From: Armatimonadota bacterium
GTDB lineage: Bacteria; Armatimonadota; SYMT01
NCBI GenBank assembly: GCA_046292385.1
Contig: JBKBRF010000028.1
Location: 1 to 64,000 of the forward strand
Direction of reading: 5' to 3'
DNA length: 64,000 nt
Shown here one piece after another: positions 46,848 to 53,660 of the stretch (its first letter is position 1; each line of letters opens with the position of its first letter). The notes beneath the pieces are model-generated. The model was not told where the DNA came from, made no database searches, and saw only the letters and a list, made by a program, of their open reading frames with translations. The translations under genes were made by a program, and so were the position numbers.

Positions 46848-46958
46848 GACGGAAGCACCTCCTGCCGGATTGTGCTCCTGTCTCCTCCAACCTGGCTGAG
46901 CTGGGTCGGAGAGTGGTGTAACTCTGCCCCGCCGGTTTTGCCGGCGGGGCCTTTTTTC
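46848..46958 (+). ncRNA. candidate small RNA with CUCCU (anti-SD) motifs
   Basis: three CTCCT motifs, two small hairpins and a strong terminator; TG-C-TAAGAC extended -10-like element upstream. Confidence 0.35.
46926..46957 (+). terminator. intrinsic terminator
   Basis: GCCCCGCCGG TTTTG CCGGCGGGGC CTTTTTT. Confidence 0.8.
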
Positions 46959-46985: not shown

Positions 46986-47015
46986 GATGTATTTCTCACG
47001 GGGATCCGGCCTTTA
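46986..47015 (+). promoter_or_regulatory. candidate ECF promoter, copy 1
   Basis: GATGTATTTC-N15-CTTTA; same spacing as 48489-48518. Confidence 0.55.
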
Positions 47016-47091
47016 TCCGGGTGGAAGACGGCGGTGCCCTGGCGGCGAGACCGCCAATCGACCGCATCCTGGTTTACGAAGGAGATCACCC

Positions 47092-47703
47092 GTGGCTACT
47101 ACGCTTTCACTTCGCTTCCGCCGCGCCCTGGCGCTGGCGGCGGCGCTGACCGTGCTGCTCCCCGTCTTCGCCACCCCGGCGGAAGCCCGCCGTGGACGCG
47201 GTGGGGACGACCGCGGCGTCGGCGACGACCGCGGCGGCGACCGCGGCGGCGACGATGACCGGAACGACGACGGCGGCGGCCGTGGCCGGGGCCGGGGCGG
47301 CGATGACCGCGGCGGCAGCCGGGGACGAATCCGCAATGATTACCGCCTGGTACCGACTGCCGCCGGCGAGGAGGACGGCCTGTTCGGCAAGGCAAGGCTG
47401 GAGGCGCGGTCGGACCGCTTCCGACTGCGCGTGCAGGTGAAGACGCCGGTCCTGCCGCAGGGCACCGTGCTGCAGGCCTACGCGCTGGTGAACGGCGCGG
47501 GCGGCGTGCAGCGGCTCTTCCTCGGCTCCCTGGTGCTCCAGCCGAGCGACAACCACGCGAACCTGATGGAGGACAAGGTCGACCTGCGCGCTTTCCCCAG
47601 CGGCATCACCTCGCCGGGCCAGGTCGCCGGCTTCGAGGTGACGGACCAGGATTCCACCGTGACGCTGCTGACCTCGGTGCTGACGCGGTCGCGCAGCCGC
47701 TGA
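47092..47703 (+). CDS. secreted protein with Gly/Asp/Arg low-complexity (GGDDRG) repeats and a beta-rich C-domain
   Basis: AAGGAG RBS, GTG start, signal peptide ending AEA, RRGRGGDDRG repeats. Confidence 0.75.
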   Translation: MATTLSLRFRRALALAAALTVLLPVFATPAEARRGRGGDDRGVGDDRGGDRGGDDDRNDDGGGRGRGRGGDDRGGSRGRIRNDYRLVPTAAGEEDGLFGKARLEARSDRFRLRVQVKTPVLPQGTVLQAYALVNGAGGVQRLFLGSLVLQPSDNHANLMEDKVDLRAFPSGITSPGQVAGFEVTDQDSTVTLLTSVLTRSRSR

Positions 47704-47721
47704 TCTGCTGCGATCCGCGGT

Positions 47722-47757
47722 CCGGGACCGGAGGCGTTTCCGGTCCCGGGCCTTCTT
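47722..47757 (+). terminator. hairpin/terminator
   Basis: CCGGGACCGGA GGCGTT TCCGGTCCCGG followed by CCTTCTT. Confidence 0.55.
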
Positions 47758-47770
47758 CGCGTTTTGGGGT

Positions 47771-47800
47771 GACGTATCGGGTGGAGTGTTGCGTTTTGTA
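47771..47800 (+). promoter_or_regulatory. candidate ECF promoter, degenerate copy upstream of the sigma gene
   Basis: GACGTATCGG-N15-TTGTA. Confidence 0.4.
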
Positions 47801-47908
47801 TTATGGTGGCGCGGGCGTACCGCGGGATGCGCCGGGGGTATGCTGAGAGTGAGGACCCGGCCGAATTGTGGCTCTGGCTAACTACGGCGCCCGGTATGCG
47901 GTGAGAAG

Positions 47909-48490
47909 GTGTACGTGAGAGAGCAGGACTGGCCCCTTGTCCGCGCCTGTGAGGCGGGAGACCGGAAGGCGTGGGAGACGCTCATCCGGCGCTACGAGCG
48001 CCTGTTGATGGCGATCCCGCGCCGCTGCGGACTCTCCGAGGAAGACGCCGCCGACGTCTTCCAGACCGTCTGCATGAAGCTGGTGGAGAACCTCTCCCGG
48101 CTGCGAGACGAGCGACACCTCACCGGCTGGCTCATCACCACCGCCAAGCACGAGTCGTGGAACATCCACCGCAAGCGGAAGCGGCTGGAGGCGCTCGTCG
48201 AGCCGGAGGCGCTCGGCAGCACCGACGCGACGACCGACCTCCTCGTCTCCGACGAACTCCTCCCGGAAGAGGCGGTGCAGCGCCTGGAAGAAGCGCAGCT
48301 CGTGCGCGAGGCGCTGGAGGATCTGGGCGAGCGCTGCCGGCTGCTGCTGCAGCTCCTCTATCATTCCGATCCCCCGCTCACCTACGCGGAGGTGGCGGCG
48401 CGCCTGAACGTCTCCACCGGCGCGATCGGTCCCACCCGCGGCCGGTGCCTGGTCCAGCTCAAGAAGATCCTGGATCGCAACGGCTTTTGA
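47909..48490 (+). CDS. ECF-type RNA polymerase sigma-70 factor
   Basis: GDRKAWETLIRRY, DAADVFQTV, GWLITTAKHE; region 4 YAEVAARLNVSTGAIGPTRGRCL. Confidence 0.93.
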   Translation: MYVREQDWPLVRACEAGDRKAWETLIRRYERLLMAIPRRCGLSEEDAADVFQTVCMKLVENLSRLRDERHLTGWLITTAKHESWNIHRKRKRLEALVEPEALGSTDATTDLLVSDELLPEEAVQRLEEAQLVREALEDLGERCRLLLQLLYHSDPPLTYAEVAARLNVSTGAIGPTRGRCLVQLKKILDRNGF

Positions 48491-48518
48491 TGTATCTCCG
48501 CGCCGTTTCGGGTCTTTA
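48489..48518 (+). promoter_or_regulatory. candidate ECF promoter, copy 2 (overlaps the sigma stop)
   Basis: GATGTATCTC-N15-CTTTA. Confidence 0.55.
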
Positions 48519-48548
48519 ACCATGCGGATGGGCGCTGCCGGCCCACCT

Positions 48549-48640
48549 GTTGCAAGTTGGCAGGTTGCAGGTTAGCAGGTTGGGAACCCCCGCTGACGGG
48601 ATGCAAACCTGCAACCTGCCAACCTGCAACCTACCAACAG
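48549..48640. repeat. GCAGGTT / AACCTGC inverted heptamer arms
   Basis: gttgcaagttggcaggttgcaggttagcaggtt ... aacctgcaacctgccaacctgcaacctacc. Confidence 0.85.
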
Positions 48641-48674
48641 ACTTCAGCCCACCCGGACTTGAAGAGAGTTAACG

Positions 48675-49280
48675 ATGGCTACCCGCGACCACCTGACCCC
48701 TGAAGAGCTCCTTGCCTGTGCGGAGGGGAGCGCGGACGACCGCCTGCTGGCGCGGGTCCGCCGCCACCTGGAGAGCGGGTGCGCCGGCTGCTCCGCCGAG
48801 CTCGACTCCTGGACGCGGATGCACTCCGCGCTGCAGGCCGACCGGGAGCCGGGCGCGCCGGACTGGGTGCTGGAGCGCGCGCTGGGAATGATCGACCGCA
48901 TCGAGCGGCAGCCGACGCTGTGGGAGCGGATCACCGCCGCCCTGGTGTGGGACAGCCGCACGCAGCCGGTCCCTGCCGGGATCCGGGACGCGGGCAGCAA
49001 CGCCTTCTCACTGCTGTTCAAGGCCGACTCGATCCACGTCGACCTGCTCTGCGAGCGAGAGGGCAACTCCTGGCGGATCACCGGCCAGGTCCTCTCCGAG
49101 CCCCCGGCGGAGCTGCCGTGGCGCGCCAGCCTGCACGGGGGCGGCGAGAGCCGGGAAGCGGAGGTGGCGCGGGGGGGCGAGCTCTCCTTCGAGAACGTGC
49201 CACCCGGCACCTACAGCCTGACGCTCACCAGCCAGGGCCGCTCGATCCTGCTGCCGGACATCCGGCTCTCCCCCGCCTGA
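48675..49280 (+). CDS. putative soluble anti-sigma factor (zf-HC2-like N-terminus, carboxypeptidase-regulatory-like C-domain)
   Basis: HLTPEEL...HLESGCAGC; ITGQVL...GELSFENVPPGTYSL; no TM segment; follows the sigma gene. Confidence 0.72.
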   Translation: MATRDHLTPEELLACAEGSADDRLLARVRRHLESGCAGCSAELDSWTRMHSALQADREPGAPDWVLERALGMIDRIERQPTLWERITAALVWDSRTQPVPAGIRDAGSNAFSLLFKADSIHVDLLCEREGNSWRITGQVLSEPPAELPWRASLHGGGESREAEVARGGELSFENVPPGTYSLTLTSQGRSILLPDIRLSPA

Positions 49281-49287
49281 GCCCCGG

Positions 49288-52092
49288 ATGTCTTCTCTCG
49301 TTCAACAACTACTGGCGGCGTCCCCCGAGGAGCGCGCGCGCCTGCTCCGGGGCAAGCCCGACGCCGGCTTCTCCGACGTGAACGAGCTTGCCGAGCGGGC
49401 CCGCGCCGCCGCGCGCGCCAATCCGGCGGAGGGGCTGCAACTGGCGCAGACCGCCCGGGCGCTGGCGGAGGCGATTGCAGATCCCCGCGGGCGGGCGGTC
49501 GCCTCCCGCGCGCTGGGGGTGGCGCTCTGGGCGCGCGCCGGCTGGAGCGAGGCGCTGGCCGCCTTCACCGAGGGGGAGCGGGCGGCGCTCGACGCGGGCG
49601 ACGCGCTCCTGGCGGCGCAGGTGCCGATCCTGGCGGTCGAGGTGCTGGCGCAGCTCGGGCGGCATCCGGAGGCGCTCGCGCTGGCCGACCGCCTGGAAGC
49701 GCAGCTCCGGTCGCTGGGAGCGGAGCTGGACGCCGCCAAGGTGGTGGCGAACGCGGGGAACATCCACTTCCAGCGCGGCGAGTATGCCGCGGCGCTGCAG
49801 TCGTGGACCCAGGCGCTGGAGTTCTTCCGTGCGGCGGGTAACGAGCCGGCGGTCGCGCAGCTCCAGATCAACATCGCCAACGTCCTCACCCACCTGAACC
49901 GGCTGCCGGACGCCGTCCGCCGCTACGAGGAGGCCCGCAGCGCCTTCGAGGCCGCCGGGGTGGAGTCGGTGGTCGCGGGCGTCGAGGGAAACCTCGGCTT
50001 CCTGCAGTTCGTGGCCGGCCGCTATCCGGAGGCGCTGCGCAGACTGGAGCAGGCGCGGACCCGCTTCGAGCGGCTGGAGCTCCCGAAAGACCTGGCGAAG
50101 TGCGACCGCGAGACGGCGGACATCTACCTGGAGCTGAACCTGCTGCCGGAGGCGGTGGAGGCGTATGAGCGGGTGCGGCCGCTCTTCCAGGAGCTGCAGG
50201 TGCCGGTGGAGGCAGCCCGCTGCGACCTCGGGCTGGCGACCGCTCTCGGGCGGCTCGACCGGCGCGCAGAGGCGGAGGAGGCGCTGAAGCGCGCGGAGGC
50301 GGCGTTCCGCGCTGCCGGGAACGAGGTCGGCACCGCCCGGGCGGCGCTGCTGCGCGTGGAGCTGGAGCTGGAGGAGGCGCCGGACCGGGAGCGAAGCGCG
50401 CGCGCGGCGGAGCGTATCTTCCGCCGCCACGGGATGGTGCTCGCGGCGGCGCGGGCGCGGCTGGCGCCGCTCGAGCAGCGGGTGGAGGCGGGCGGAAGCC
50501 CGGTGCGGTCGCTGCGGCGCCTGCGGGCGGAGGTAGAGACCGAGGCGCTCTTCTCCCTGCGCTGGCGGGTGGAGGCGGCGCTGGCCCGCGCGGCGGTGAA
50601 TGCGGGGAAGCCCCGGTCCGCGCTGACGCACTACCGGCGAGCGGTGGAGGAGATCGAGCGGGCGCGGCACCTGCTGCCGGGGGAGGAGCTCCGCATCGCC
50701 TTCCTGCGGGACAAGACGCGCCTGCTGGAAGAGCTGCTGGGCCTCCTGCTCGACCGCGGCACGCCCGCGGCGCTGCGGGAGGCGTTCCGGCTGGCGGAGC
50801 GCGCCAAGTCGCGCGTGCTGGCGGAGCTGCTCTCCGGCCCGGTGGAGGCGCTGGAGAGCGACGACCCCGAGCGGCAGGCGCTGACGGCGCGGCTGGAGGA
50901 GCTCCGGGCGCAGCTGAAGTGGGACCACGACCGCCAGGAGACCGGCGGCGGAGAGGCGAGCCGCCTGCCTGCTGCCGACGCGGAGCTGCCGGAGCGGGTG
51001 CGCCGCCTGGAGCAGGAGTACCTGCAGACCCGCCGTCGGCTGCAGCTCTCCGGAGGTCGGCAGGTCGCCTTCGGCGAGCCGCCGGAGCTGCGCGCGCTTC
51101 AGTCGCTCCTGCAGGACGACGAGCAGCTGGTGGAGTACGTGACGGTGCGGGACGAGGTGATCGCCTTCGTGGTCGACCGCCGCCGCTTCCACGCGGTGCG
51201 CGGCCTCGCCTCCCGCCGGGAGGTGGAGGAGCTGGCCCGGCGGCTCGGCCTCCAGTGGGCGCGGGCGGCGTCGGGCGGGCTGCCGCCGCTGTTCCGGGAC
51301 CGGCTGCTCCAGAGCACGGAAGCGGTGCTGCGGGAGCTGTACGAGGCGCTGGTGGAGCCGCTGGAGCCGCTGCTCACCGGGCGACGGATCACGCTGATCC
51401 CGCACGGCGCGCTGCACGGCGTGCCGTTCCACGCGCTGCACGACGGGGTCGACTACCTCCTGGAGCGCTGGGAGATCGCCTACGCCCCCAGCGCCGGCGT
51501 CTGGCGCGCCTGCCGGCTGCGGCCGGAGCCGGAGACCCGGGAGTCGCTGCTCTACGGCGTCTCCGATCCGGCGCTGCCGCACGTGCGGTCGGAGGTCGAA
51601 GGCCTCGCCGCCCTGCTCGACAGCTCCCGCGCGCTGCACGACGGGCAGGCGACCCTCGCCGCCGTCCCCCGCGACGGAGCGTTCCGGTACCTGCACTTCG
51701 CCACGCATGCGGTCTTCCGTGAGGACAACCCGCTCTTCTCCGGCCTGAAGCTGGCGGACGGCTGGCTCATCGCGCACGATCTCTATCGCCGCCGGCTGGA
51801 GTGCTGCCTCGCCACCCTCTCCGCCTGCCGGACGGGGGTCAGCCACGTGGCTCCGGGCGACGAGACGCTGGGGTTGGTCCGCGGCTTCCTGCACGCGGGC
51901 GCCCGCGCGGTGCTGGTGAGCCTGTGGGTGGCGGACGATACGGCGACCGCGGAGCTGATGCAGCAGTGTTACGCGCGCCTGGCGGCGGGAGAGAGCCGCG
52001 CCGCAGCGCTGCGGGAGGCTCAGCGGGTGGTCCGCTCCCGTTATCCGCACCCGTTCCACTGGGCGCCGTTCGTGATGGTGGGAGCTTCCTGA
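49288..52092 (+). CDS. TPR-CHAT (caspase-like clan CD) protease
   Basis: TPR repeats; AERAKSR, LIPHGALHGVPFHAL, YAPSA, HFATH (His), LSACRTG (Cys), SLWVADD, HPFHWAPF. Confidence 0.93.
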   Translation: MSSLVQQLLAASPEERARLLRGKPDAGFSDVNELAERARAAARANPAEGLQLAQTARALAEAIADPRGRAVASRALGVALWARAGWSEALAAFTEGERAALDAGDALLAAQVPILAVEVLAQLGRHPEALALADRLEAQLRSLGAELDAAKVVANAGNIHFQRGEYAAALQSWTQALEFFRAAGNEPAVAQLQINIANVLTHLNRLPDAVRRYEEARSAFEAAGVESVVAGVEGNLGFLQFVAGRYPEALRRLEQARTRFERLELPKDLAKCDRETADIYLELNLLPEAVEAYERVRPLFQELQVPVEAARCDLGLATALGRLDRRAEAEEALKRAEAAFRAAGNEVGTARAALLRVELELEEAPDRERSARAAERIFRRHGMVLAAARARLAPLEQRVEAGGSPVRSLRRLRAEVETEALFSLRWRVEAALARAAVNAGKPRSALTHYRRAVEEIERARHLLPGEELRIAFLRDKTRLLEELLGLLLDRGTPAALREAFRLAERAKSRVLAELLSGPVEALESDDPERQALTARLEELRAQLKWDHDRQETGGGEASRLPAADAELPERVRRLEQEYLQTRRRLQLSGGRQVAFGEPPELRALQSLLQDDEQLVEYVTVRDEVIAFVVDRRRFHAVRGLASRREVEELARRLGLQWARAASGGLPPLFRDRLLQSTEAVLRELYEALVEPLEPLLTGRRITLIPHGALHGVPFHALHDGVDYLLERWEIAYAPSAGVWRACRLRPEPETRESLLYGVSDPALPHVRSEVEGLAALLDSSRALHDGQATLAAVPRDGAFRYLHFATHAVFREDNPLFSGLKLADGWLIAHDLYRRRLECCLATLSACRTGVSHVAPGDETLGLVRGFLHAGARAVLVSLWVADDTATAELMQQCYARLAAGESRAAALREAQRVVRSRYPHPFHWAPFVMVGAS

Positions 52093-52190
52093 GGGATGAG
52101 GGATGAGGGATGAGGGATGAAGGATGAGGGATGAATCCGGACCTTCCGTGTCCGGTCGCTCCTACTCTCTCGTTCTCCTTCTCTTTCTCG
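52091..52190 (+). repeat. (GGGATGA)n composite repeat copy with a G-quadruplex motif
   Basis: GGGATGA x4, then GGATGAGGGATGA-ATCCGGACC and a CT-rich tail. Confidence 0.85.
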
Positions 52191-52364
52191 GGAGCGCGCC
52201 GGGGCGAGCCCGGTTGGCGGGAGGAGCAGCCGCGCGCGAACAGTTCTTCGATCTTTCTTCTCCCCTCTTTTTCATCTAGTCACTGGCTGAAGTAACCTGG
52301 GAGTTCTGCCGACGAACGGTACGAAATGGTACCGATTTGCAGGGCCGGCTCCGGAGTCGAACCG

Positions 52365-53660
52365 ATGCGCTTAACCACGATTGGATTGGCAGTCTTGATC
52401 CTGCTGGCCGGGGCCACGGAGGCCCAGGCGCGGCGGGGGCGGAACCGGCTGAAGGAGCTCACCAAGAATGAGCTGGTGGTCCGCCTGGCTCCAGGGACCG
52501 ACGCTCAGAAGTTCGCCCGGGATTACCGGGTGAAGGTGATCTCCCAGGGCACCGGCAGCGGCCGCTACCGGGTGAAGATGCGGAACACCCGGGATGCCGC
52601 GCGCCTGCTGGCGAAGCGGCTGCAGGATACCCGCATCATCAGCGCGGACAAGAACCTCCCGGCCCCCTCGCCCCCGGGGGAGCAGGCGCAGTGGACCACC
52701 GCTTTCGACGGCGACCGCGGCCCGCGCGCCTACGACGGCCAGCTGGCGATCGGGCAGGTCCGCTTCACGCAGGCGCCGACGCTGGCAGACGGCGCCGGCG
52801 TGACGGTGGCGGTTCTCGATACCGGCATCTCCCGGCGGCACCCGCACCTGGCGGCGCAGACGGTGGAGGGCTGGAACTTCGTGGACGACAACGCCGACAC
52901 GGACGACCGCCCCTACCAGCTCGACCTGGACGGGGACCGGGTCCGGGATGAGGGCCTGGGCCACGGGACGGTGGTCGCCGGCCTCATCGCCCGCTTCGCC
53001 CCGAAAGCGACGCTGCTGCCGGTGCGCGTGCTGAACAGCGAGGGCATGGGAACGGTCTGGGACGCGGTGCGCGGCATCGAGTACGCCATCTCGAAGGGCG
53101 CGCGGGTCTTGAACCTGAGCTTTGGCGTGCAGGAGCGCTCCGAGATCCTGGAAGACGCGATCAAGGAGGCGGAAGACGCGGGGGTGTTGATCATCACCAC
53201 CGCCGGCAACCACGCCAGTTCTCGCCCGCAGTACCCGGCGAAGTACTCTCACGTGGTGGCGGTCGGCGCCGTGAACGCGGACGACAGCCGGGCGAAGTTC
53301 TCCAACTTCGGGAGCGACGTCGACATCTACGCGCCGGGAGTCGACGTGGTGAGCACCTTCTGGGACGGCACCTACGTGGCGTGGTCCGGCACCTCGTTCG
53401 CCGCGCCGATGGTGAGCGGCACCGCCGCCCTGATCCTCTCCCGCAACCCGGGCCTCTCGCTGGAGGACGTGGGCGACCTGATCGAAGACACCGCCCGCCG
53501 CGCAGAGGCCGCCCGCAGCCTGCGCCGCGGCCGAGGCGGTGATGACGGCGGCAACAGCGGCCCCGGAGGCGGCGACCGCACCGAAATCCTCGACGTCGAC
53601 TCCGCCGTCACCGCCGCGATCAACGGCGGGGGTGATGACGACGATGAGGATGACGATTAG
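52365..53660 (+). CDS. secreted S8 subtilisin-like serine protease
   Basis: signal peptide, prodomain; VLDTG (Asp), GHGT (His), AGN, SGTSFAAP (Ser); acidic tail. Confidence 0.93.
   Translation: MRLTTIGLAVLILLAGATEAQARRGRNRLKELTKNELVVRLAPGTDAQKFARDYRVKVISQGTGSGRYRVKMRNTRDAARLLAKRLQDTRIISADKNLPAPSPPGEQAQWTTAFDGDRGPRAYDGQLAIGQVRFTQAPTLADGAGVTVAVLDTGISRRHPHLAAQTVEGWNFVDDNADTDDRPYQLDLDGDRVRDEGLGHGTVVAGLIARFAPKATLLPVRVLNSEGMGTVWDAVRGIEYAISKGARVLNLSFGVQERSEILEDAIKEAEDAGVLIITTAGNHASSRPQYPAKYSHVVAVGAVNADDSRAKFSNFGSDVDIYAPGVDVVSTFWDGTYVAWSGTSFAAPMVSGTAALILSRNPGLSLEDVGDLIEDTARRAEAARSLRRGRGGDDGGNSGPGGGDRTEILDVDSAVTAAINGGGDDDDEDDD

Follow-up and report, generated by a model that had tools for sequence, protein, structure and literature searches.

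A four-gene cassette encoding a sigma factor of the extracytoplasmic function (ECF) type, a small protein with a predicted zinc anti-sigma domain, a tetratricopeptide repeat (TPR)-CHAT protease and an S8 subtilase is strongly conserved among Armatimonadota, and chance can hardly account for its arrangement, which is seen again at 46 loci in related genomes. The cassette is described here from a window of 64,000 nucleotides (nt) with a G+C content of about 70%, contig JBKBRF010000028.1 of an Armatimonadota bacterium (GCA_046292385.1), to which positions refer unless another locus or contig is named. Together with a gene for a secreted Gly/Asp protein it forms a run of five co-oriented open reading frames on the forward strand (47092-53660), all of which were recovered where the original prediction had placed them. 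The neighbourhood is already catalogued, being the published hallmark of ECF54 (Huang et al. 2015; Casas-Pastor et al. 2021), and the finding is an ECF54-like context outside Actinobacteria in which the missing anti-sigma is identified from its sequence features. We give about an even chance to the reading that the cassette works as a protease-gated ECF sigma switch, and the earlier interpretation, a circuit analogous to the CRISPR-associated Craspase, is on the whole partly supported.

The gene that follows the sigma gene had been predicted to encode a soluble anti-sigma, from an HxxxxCxxC zinc motif and the lack of a transmembrane helix, and both the motif and the assignment have held up against a family profile, a structure model and Foldseek searches. 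Taken alone, the protein of 201 amino acids (aa) has no Pfam or other family match; it contains H31-x4-C36-x2-C39 and is without a hydrophobic segment. A profile of seven such small proteins, searched against 1.84 billion representatives, gave 7737 matches at E 0.001 and 118 at 1e-30, and the 124 full-length proteins (185-230 aa) among the best 150 matches were taken as the family set. H-x3-C-x2-C is the classic form of the zinc anti-sigma motif. In the family, H-x3/4-C-x2-C is found within the first 80 residues of 120 of the 124 members, spaced as H-x4-C-x2-C in 113 and as H-x3-C in seven, and H31, C36 and C39 are each kept in at least 121; a possible fourth ligand lies upstream, Cys in 71 members and His in 42 (H6 in the window protein). 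A segment of transmembrane grade is present in none of the 124, the top 19-residue hydropathy being 1.52. Family libraries recognize zf-HC2 in 28 members and CarboxypepD_reg in 32, and the first 80 positions of the family profile match solved anti-sigma domains, namely ChrR (3.9e-4), RsiW (5.5e-4), DdvA (0.01) and RslA (0.022), the C-terminal part matching the NOMO beta-sandwich.

The AlphaFold model of the 201-aa protein (mean predicted local distance difference test score, pLDDT, 90.4) has helices at residues 9-16, 22-33, 37-55 and 63-75, after which come a strand (85-93), a coil (97-109) and a sandwich (110-198), with block-mean pLDDT of 80-98 over residues 1-70 and 67 over residues 71-80. 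When compared with the PDB by Foldseek, its top three matches were all ChrR in the sigma-E complex (E 0.011-0.016), and VIA-align with residues 100-201 returned generic immunoglobulin (Ig)-like sandwiches with Z up to 8.4, the helical domain being barely covered there. As judged from profile and model, the N-terminal half (residues about 9-75) is a predicted four-helix, class I zinc anti-sigma domain and the C-terminal half (110-198) a predicted Ig-like beta-sandwich, so that the "carboxypeptidase" label denotes a non-catalytic fold; the whole is a putative cognate anti-sigma that would bind the neighbouring sigma. The stretch between the two halves holds another conserved element, in which five or six residues separate A-x-L-x-F-D-S-R from A-G-A-R. 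Its A88, D93 and R104 are near-invariant, 97 of the 124 members have the same D-to-R spacing, and R104 falls within the modelled coil 97-109. One search for related loci with the small protein retrieved only large proteins that share a PPGTY-type sandwich motif; they were set aside as unrelated, the cassette being absent at those loci.

That the genes travel together had been proposed as well, and the neighbourhood survey bears this out for four of the five, leaving the Gly/Asp protein outside the core. With the small protein as query, full-length relatives were found in 6 of 41 related genomes (this genome counted), and the six loci fetched from this first search all have the order sigma, small protein, CHAT, S8. 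The profile of the 124 members was then run against 401 genomes of the phylum, giving 47 full or C-terminal matches in 40 genomes, and 46 loci from the 39 other genomes were scored with four cassette profiles. The CHAT gene directly follows the small gene in 45 of these loci, the 46th being a 1.2-kb contig with no room for it. An S8 gene follows CHAT in 36, five more cannot be judged at contig ends, and in locus L063 it stands on the other side of the small gene. The sigma gene lies upstream on the same strand in 36 loci, is divergent in three, follows CHAT in one (L063) and was not found in six, three of these lying close to the end of a contig and the other three having some 7 kb of room. 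Permuted gene orders (L063, L104) do not break up the group either, and a named Acidobacteriota metagenome-assembled genome has the order sigma, CHAT, small protein, S8. Overall the cassette occurs in about 53 of the 401 phylum genomes, patchily and in up to three copies per genome; in the ESM Atlas the nearest clusters of the small protein and the sigma are mostly from Acidobacteriota, Chloroflexota and Armatimonadota, to be taken as leads only.

The spacing of the genes is telling. With the window counted, the gap between the small gene and CHAT has a median of 2 nt and is at most 20 nt in 42 of 46 loci (in the window CHAT starts 7 nt past the anti-sigma stop), the gap between CHAT and S8 has a median of 12 nt, and the interval from sigma to the small gene is wider (median 87 nt), with 20 nt or less in only 4 of 38. 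The CHAT gene is thus, by its position, translationally coupled to the anti-sigma gene. Some loci carry insertions in the sigma-to-small-gene interval: 1.5-1.7 kb in L060, L066 and L071, and in L024 (9730-12426, G031:C1) a gene whose 898-aa product is a secreted repeat protein containing an InlB B-repeat-like domain.

The sigma itself is a minimal ECF factor, matching Sigma70_r2 (1.2e-11), Sigma70_r4 (8.2e-7) and TIGR02937 (3.1e-25) and having no extension. It belongs to a distinct orthogroup, scoring 246.5 bits with its own profile vs at most 95.7 for the other ECF sigmas of this genome; across genomes, cassette-type sigmas reach at least 189 bits and other ECF sigmas at most 114. Top-tier sigmas were found in 41 of the 401 phylum genomes: all 40 in which the small protein occurs, and G002, in which a contig end interrupts the small gene. 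Four genomes with a cassette that lacks an adjacent sigma encode a cassette-type sigma at another place. In 12 further genomes the sigma is of a more distant type (158-179 bits), and the three loci of this kind that were sampled all carry sigma, a 177-183-aa protein, CHAT and S8, the small protein of one (L109) having the motif H-x3-C-x2-C. On these scores and co-occurrences, the sigma is the dedicated partner of the cassette.

The 934-aa protein matches the CHAT domain (PF12770, clan CD) at 9.7e-61. Its His/Cys dyad, which had been read from HFATH and LSAC, is present at residues 803-807 and 844-847, and none of the 41 full-length CHAT homologues departs from H803, H807, A846 and C847 or has a hydrophobic N-terminus. 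Among solved structures the CHAT domain has just two relatives by sequence, both of them TPR-CHAT proteins of type III-E, 7zoq_A (2.1e-4) and 7y9x_B (0.084); with the Csx29 model NF041237 it scores 35.5 bits, below the cut-off of 300. No fused anti-sigma/CHAT form was found in searches with the single small protein, with its profile and for longer proteins, which gave almost no matches for lack of shared words, so that this absence counts for little. The S8 domain (1.9e-50) likewise keeps the triad that had been claimed for it, D165, H213 and S357 being invariant in 35 of 35 homologues, and so does its export signal: the N-terminus is hydrophobic in 33 of 35 and is followed by a propeptide-like segment, some having a lipoprotein-like Cys. 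In the window protein the signal peptide more likely begins at M14 (nt 52365), and the tail is rich in Gly and Asp. A resemblance to mycosin was dismissed at 176.3 bits vs a cut-off of 278.75. Sigma, anti-sigma and CHAT are thus predicted to be cytoplasmic and S8 to be exported, and S8 would therefore have no access to cytoplasmic proteins. A second TPR-CHAT protein of the genome (766 aa, CHAT 3.2e-67; contig C18:3424-5724, locus L028) adjoins MOSC and sulfatase genes, and was rejected as a second cassette, having no sigma, anti-sigma or S8 neighbour.

A promoter-like motif recurs just behind the sigma gene. Of the 29 spacers between sigma and the small gene, 16 contain GTAT[CT]-N16-19-TCT[ACT], against none when the reverse strand is read and a mean of 0.52 (maximum 2) in 200 shuffles, and its density is 4.0 per kb in the spacers vs 0.077 per kb over whole loci. 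It begins 4-9 nt past the sigma stop in 11 of the 16, and its -35 part is identical in several loci to GTATCAG, the consensus published for ECF54. In the window, the copy at 48492 is a candidate promoter that would drive the anti-sigma, CHAT and S8 genes, and the closest relative has TGACGTATCAG at the equivalent place by the sigma stop. The 7.04-Mb genome contains 17 copies of TGAYGTATC, of which two flank the sigma gene, at 47770 and, over the stop codon, at 48488. The longer pattern GTAT[CT]-N16-[CT]CTTTA[AT]CC, drawn up post hoc, has exactly three matches in the genome: 46989, 48492 and contig C63 (24923), which suggests a small regulon of secreted proteins. These promoter-like motifs make it probable that the sigma drives its own locus as well as at least some of the secreted proteins, and to that extent the original prediction, which had the sigma transcribing its own locus and the secreted proteins, is sustained. 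Another candidate, GGAACA-N18-TCTAA upstream of sigma, was discarded, being confined to L023, L076, L081 and L082 and absent from the window.

The grounds in hand for a protease-gated switch are the domain identities, their conservation and co-occurrence, the coupling of the genes and the promoter-like motif. From these we infer sigma binding, CHAT cleavage and its site, the signal and the regulon, in the following scheme. The N-terminal zinc domain of the small protein would hold the sigma, as in ChrR, and the conserved loop and the Ig-like domain would tie the same protein to TPR-CHAT. The TPR array would read a signal and activate the His807/Cys847 dyad, upon which CHAT would cut the anti-sigma, the exposed coil 97-109 with its near-invariant Arg104 being a candidate site, and the sigma would be released. 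Free sigma would then transcribe the anti-sigma/CHAT/S8 operon from the conserved promoter past its own stop codon and, in this genome, the Gly/Asp protein and another secreted protein as well, S8 being an exported output.

Several observations weigh against this scheme. The matches to solved anti-sigma domains are weak, the best by sequence being 3.9e-4 and no Foldseek E value reaching 0.001. At about 15 of the 47 places in the phylum the small protein is a shorter one that matches only from residue 40-50 or so; such variants lack the zinc motif, yet their loop and sandwich are kept and CHAT and S8 still lie next to them, which argues that the zinc domain is not indispensable to the cassette, and the closest relative of all (L022) is without the H/C/C residues. 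Sigma and anti-sigma genes are not translationally coupled, unlike those of classic pairs, and in L077, L088 and L090 no sigma is adjacent despite about 7 kb of room. S8 is missing, room notwithstanding, in four loci (L083, L096-L098), and since an exported S8 has no reach to cytoplasmic partners its conserved presence is explained only as an output. Lastly, the promoter patterns were refined post hoc, after inspection of the sequences, although the controls are clear.

The scheme has its closest counterparts in a handful of described systems. ECF54 is described in the supplement to PMC7826278 as 100% actinobacterial, with no putative anti-sigma, with the promoter GTATCAG / CTCC and with a carboxypeptidase-regulatory-like domain at +1, subtilases and TPR/CHAT proteins as neighbours. 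This published description matches the present cassette in its neighbourhood and its minimal ECF sigma, and GTATC/GTATCAG just past the sigma stop is a candidate -35 element of the published type. The two differ as follows, as far as that description goes: the genome here has Omp85 and no match to the WhiB family, and is therefore that of a diderm outside Actinobacteria, its Atlas neighbours being commonest in Acidobacteriota, Chloroflexota and Armatimonadota; the +1 protein, listed there without an anti-sigma role, here carries a predicted zinc anti-sigma domain; and in place of the -10 CTCC the candidate element is TCTTTAACC, or TCT[ACT] across loci. The claim that such neighbourhoods in other phyla are functionally little characterised needs amending accordingly: the context has been published as ECF54, and the literature searched yielded no functional study of the free-standing cytoplasmic form, nor any of a stand-alone TPR-CHAT with an anti-sigma other than those on DdvA, Craspase and the type III-B cascade.

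ChrR, the inhibitor of sigma-E in Rhodobacter sphaeroides, is likewise soluble and two-domain, with an N-terminal zinc anti-sigma domain and a beta-rich C-terminus, and is the best, albeit weak, match by both sequence profile and Foldseek (E 3.9e-4 and 0.011). It differs in that its C-terminus is a cupin, whereas the protein here has an Ig-like sandwich, one extra residue in H-x4-C and a gene coupled to CHAT. DdvA of Myxococcus xanthus, as described in PMC11506125, combines a zinc anti-sigma domain and a TPR-CHAT module acting on one ECF sigma, DdvS, with a peptidase in the operon, which is the same set of parts. However, DdvA is described there as one transmembrane polypeptide with a periplasmic TPR-CHAT, an incomplete active site and a C25 peptidase partner, whereas the cassette has a separate anti-sigma and protease, both predicted to be cytoplasmic, an invariant dyad and an S8 partner. 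In Craspase, Csx29 cleaves Csx30 and thereby frees an ECF-like sigma (PMC10028731), and CalpL/CalpT/CalpS is described as following the same logic, a regulated protease cutting a sigma inhibitor. The logic proposed here is identical, and the likeness to Craspase without CRISPR is borne out in part, in that the closest and only solved relatives of the CHAT domain are the III-E TPR-CHAT proteins. The cassette differs from Craspase, which is made up of Cas7-11, Csx29, Csx30, Csx31 and an ECF-like sigma, in having no Cas7-11 or other type III component and in falling below the Csx29 cut-off. Its inhibitor is a classic zinc anti-sigma domain by prediction, with no family or PDB match to Csx30 or CalpT, a statement that holds for these matches and not for a direct comparison.

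The description of the locus as CRISPR-free stands for the locus itself, and type III RAMP families have no match in the whole genome. It does not extend to the contig, which carries a type I-C CRISPR-Cas operon (Cas3, Cas5c, Cas7/Csd2 and Cas1c; 73195-80484, locus L107) outside the window, some 19.5 kb downstream of the S8 gene; these are the only cas genes found, and no promoter motif of the cassette type was seen near them.

In the principal competitor the small protein would act like RsrA or ChrR, as an ordinary soluble anti-sigma that senses redox state or zinc and from which thiol or singlet-oxygen-type stress would free the sigma. CHAT and S8 would then be regulon members without a role in signalling, the one for protein turnover and the other as a degradative enzyme that is exported. 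A near-invariant zinc motif resembling that of ChrR, the placement of anti-sigma, CHAT and S8 behind one sigma-type promoter, which has the look of a plain regulon, and the export of S8 would all suit it. However, it is with CHAT that the anti-sigma gene is coupled (median 2 nt) and not with sigma (median 87 nt), the four genes stay together through permutations, the zinc-less variants retain loop, sandwich and CHAT neighbour, and no role is left for the A88/D93/R104 element or the Ig-like domain. The tight coupling to CHAT rather than to sigma, and the survival of the loop/sandwich/CHAT unit without the zinc domain, both favour protease gating over the regulon explanation without proving it, and we regard the latter as rather unlikely.

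A further possibility, which would be layered on the protease-gated mechanism rather than replace it, is an anti-phage or conflict module in which TPR-CHAT senses an invader protein and a defensive regulon is switched on through the anti-sigma, making the cassette a CRISPR-independent counterpart of Craspase, CalpL or DdvA. The patchy distribution, with the cassette in 53 of 401 genomes and as many as three copies in a single one, points this way, as does the link to defence of all three experimentally known protease/anti-sigma/ECF triads in the accounts published of them. On the other hand, PADLOC models give no match to the sigma, the anti-sigma or CHAT and only a generic subtilase match for S8, the flanking genes are ordinary metabolic and repair genes, and the candidate targets are secreted acidic proteins rather than known effectors, so that a defence role seems to us improbable. 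Least probable of the alternatives is that there is no functional anti-sigma and the proteases degrade the sigma directly, as a review proposes for ECF54 from its conserved neighbours (PMC8999054) and as would fit the lack of an anti-sigma in the ECF54 description (PMC7826278), because the +1 protein here carries an anti-sigma domain, the "carboxypeptidase" is a non-catalytic Ig-like sandwich and S8, with a signal peptide in 33 of 35 homologues, would not reach a cytoplasmic sigma.

The fifth gene and the secreted proteins that share its promoter-like motif (Table 1) form the periphery of the system. The Gly/Asp protein has a signal-peptide-like N-terminus and a Gly/Asp/Arg-rich stretch, with no Pfam or NCBIfam match. 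Of the 400 other genomes searched, only 3, all among the 6 from the same taxonomic family, encode homologues of its C-terminal domain, and only in G001 does such a homologue adjoin a cassette. The protein is by this distribution a lineage-specific accessory outside the conserved core, and from the motif in front of its gene it is probably a target of the sigma. Right after its stop codon, a GC-rich inverted repeat followed by a T-rich stretch (47706-47745), unflagged by the terminator scan, suggests that the gene is its own transcription unit.

The octapeptide RRGRGGDD stands both after the signal peptide of the Gly/Asp protein (47188-47211) and in the C-terminal tail of S8 (53523-53546). The two DNA regions are identical at only 30 of 54 positions, which argues against a recent duplication, and the octapeptide could be a processing or sorting motif. 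A third match, on contig C34, was dismissed because it lies in a frame with low third-position GC. Elsewhere in the genome, on contigs C63, C51 and C82, lie three paralogous genes for secreted proteins of about 380-400 aa with repeated beta modules and no Pfam family, one of which has a long Asp/Glu run and ARRGGR right behind the signal peptide. In two other loci (L026 13050-14255 and L027 3177-4418) the gene after S8 encodes a secreted DUF4382 and DUF5666 protein with a Gly/Asp/Asn-rich tail, which brings to mind the secreted proteins, acidic and rich in glycine, that are linked to the cassette in this genome.

A peptide loop can also be imagined, in which S8 would process a secreted precursor, the peptide would be imported and bound by the TPR array, as in RRNPP receptors, and CHAT would then cut the anti-sigma and free the sigma. 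Candidate precursors would be the Gly/Asp protein, whose RRGRGGDD recurs in the S8 tail, as well as the other acidic proteins that are secreted and have the same promoter-like motif in front of their genes. We hold this elaboration of the protease-gated switch to be a long shot.

Table 1. Features of the cassette region and of the related secreted-protein genes
Feature	Position	Strand	Remarks
Terminator-like element	46926..46950	+	GC-rich hairpin, 11 pairs (10 GC), then T run CTTTTTTCTC
Promoter-like GTATT-N16-CCTTTATCC	46989..47018	+	74 nt upstream of Gly/Asp gene
Gly/Asp/Arg-rich secreted protein, 203 aa	47092..47703	+	lineage-specific accessory; no family match
-35-like element TGACGTATC	47770..47778	+	139 nt upstream of sigma start
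ECF sigma, 193 aa, sigma2 and sigma4 only	47909..48490	+	Sigma70_r2, Sigma70_r4, TIGR02937
Promoter-like GTATC-N16-TCTTTAACC	48492..48521	+	2 nt past sigma stop
GCAGGTT-heptad hairpin	48549..48630	+	5' leader; -74.1 kcal/mol, z -5.2
Soluble anti-sigma-like protein, 201 aa	48675..49280	+	zinc motif, family profile, AlphaFold model
TPR-CHAT protease, 934 aa, predicted cytoplasmic	49288..52092	+	CHAT match; dyad H807/C847
Tandem GGGATGA heptads	52090..52135	+	dispersed repeat family
S8 subtilase, 444 aa, predicted exported	52326..53660	+	triad D165/H213/S357; hydrophobic N-terminus
Secreted paralogue, 382 aa	C63 (L106 1402-2550)		longer promoter motif at C63:24923
Secreted paralogue	C51:16618 (L105 1232-2422)		looser promoter match
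Secreted paralogue	C82:10396-11532		no promoter match

The terminator-like hairpin is the left border of the unit, and the genes on either side are unrelated to it, encoding PhoD, an AlkZ-like glycosylase and a molybdenum hydroxylase (on the other strand). An Rfam scan gave nothing above gathering score. The GCAGGTT hairpin and the GGGATGA heptads were ruled out as locus-specific regulatory parts, both being genome-wide repeat families (112 and 97 double-unit copies, respectively, over many contigs) that look like intergenic elements of the repetitive extragenic palindromic (REP) type.

ECF sigmas that are released by a protease, caspase-like or Lon, have so far been known only inside CRISPR or defence islands, as in Craspase, CalpL and DdvA. 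The cassette described here would be a free-standing and widespread version, present in 53 of 401 genomes of the phylum and with look-alike clusters in other phyla, and since its parts are all soluble or separable it should be easy to test. It also supplies a candidate for the missing regulator of the "orphan" context of the ECF54 kind, the +1 protein being a predicted zinc anti-sigma of the ChrR type. If the peptide loop is true, the cassette would be a peptide-sensing, self-amplifying circuit whose receptor is a protease. If the proposed cleavage is true, it would represent a general bacterial pathway from caspase to transcription that is independent of CRISPR, and a compact protease-controlled switch.

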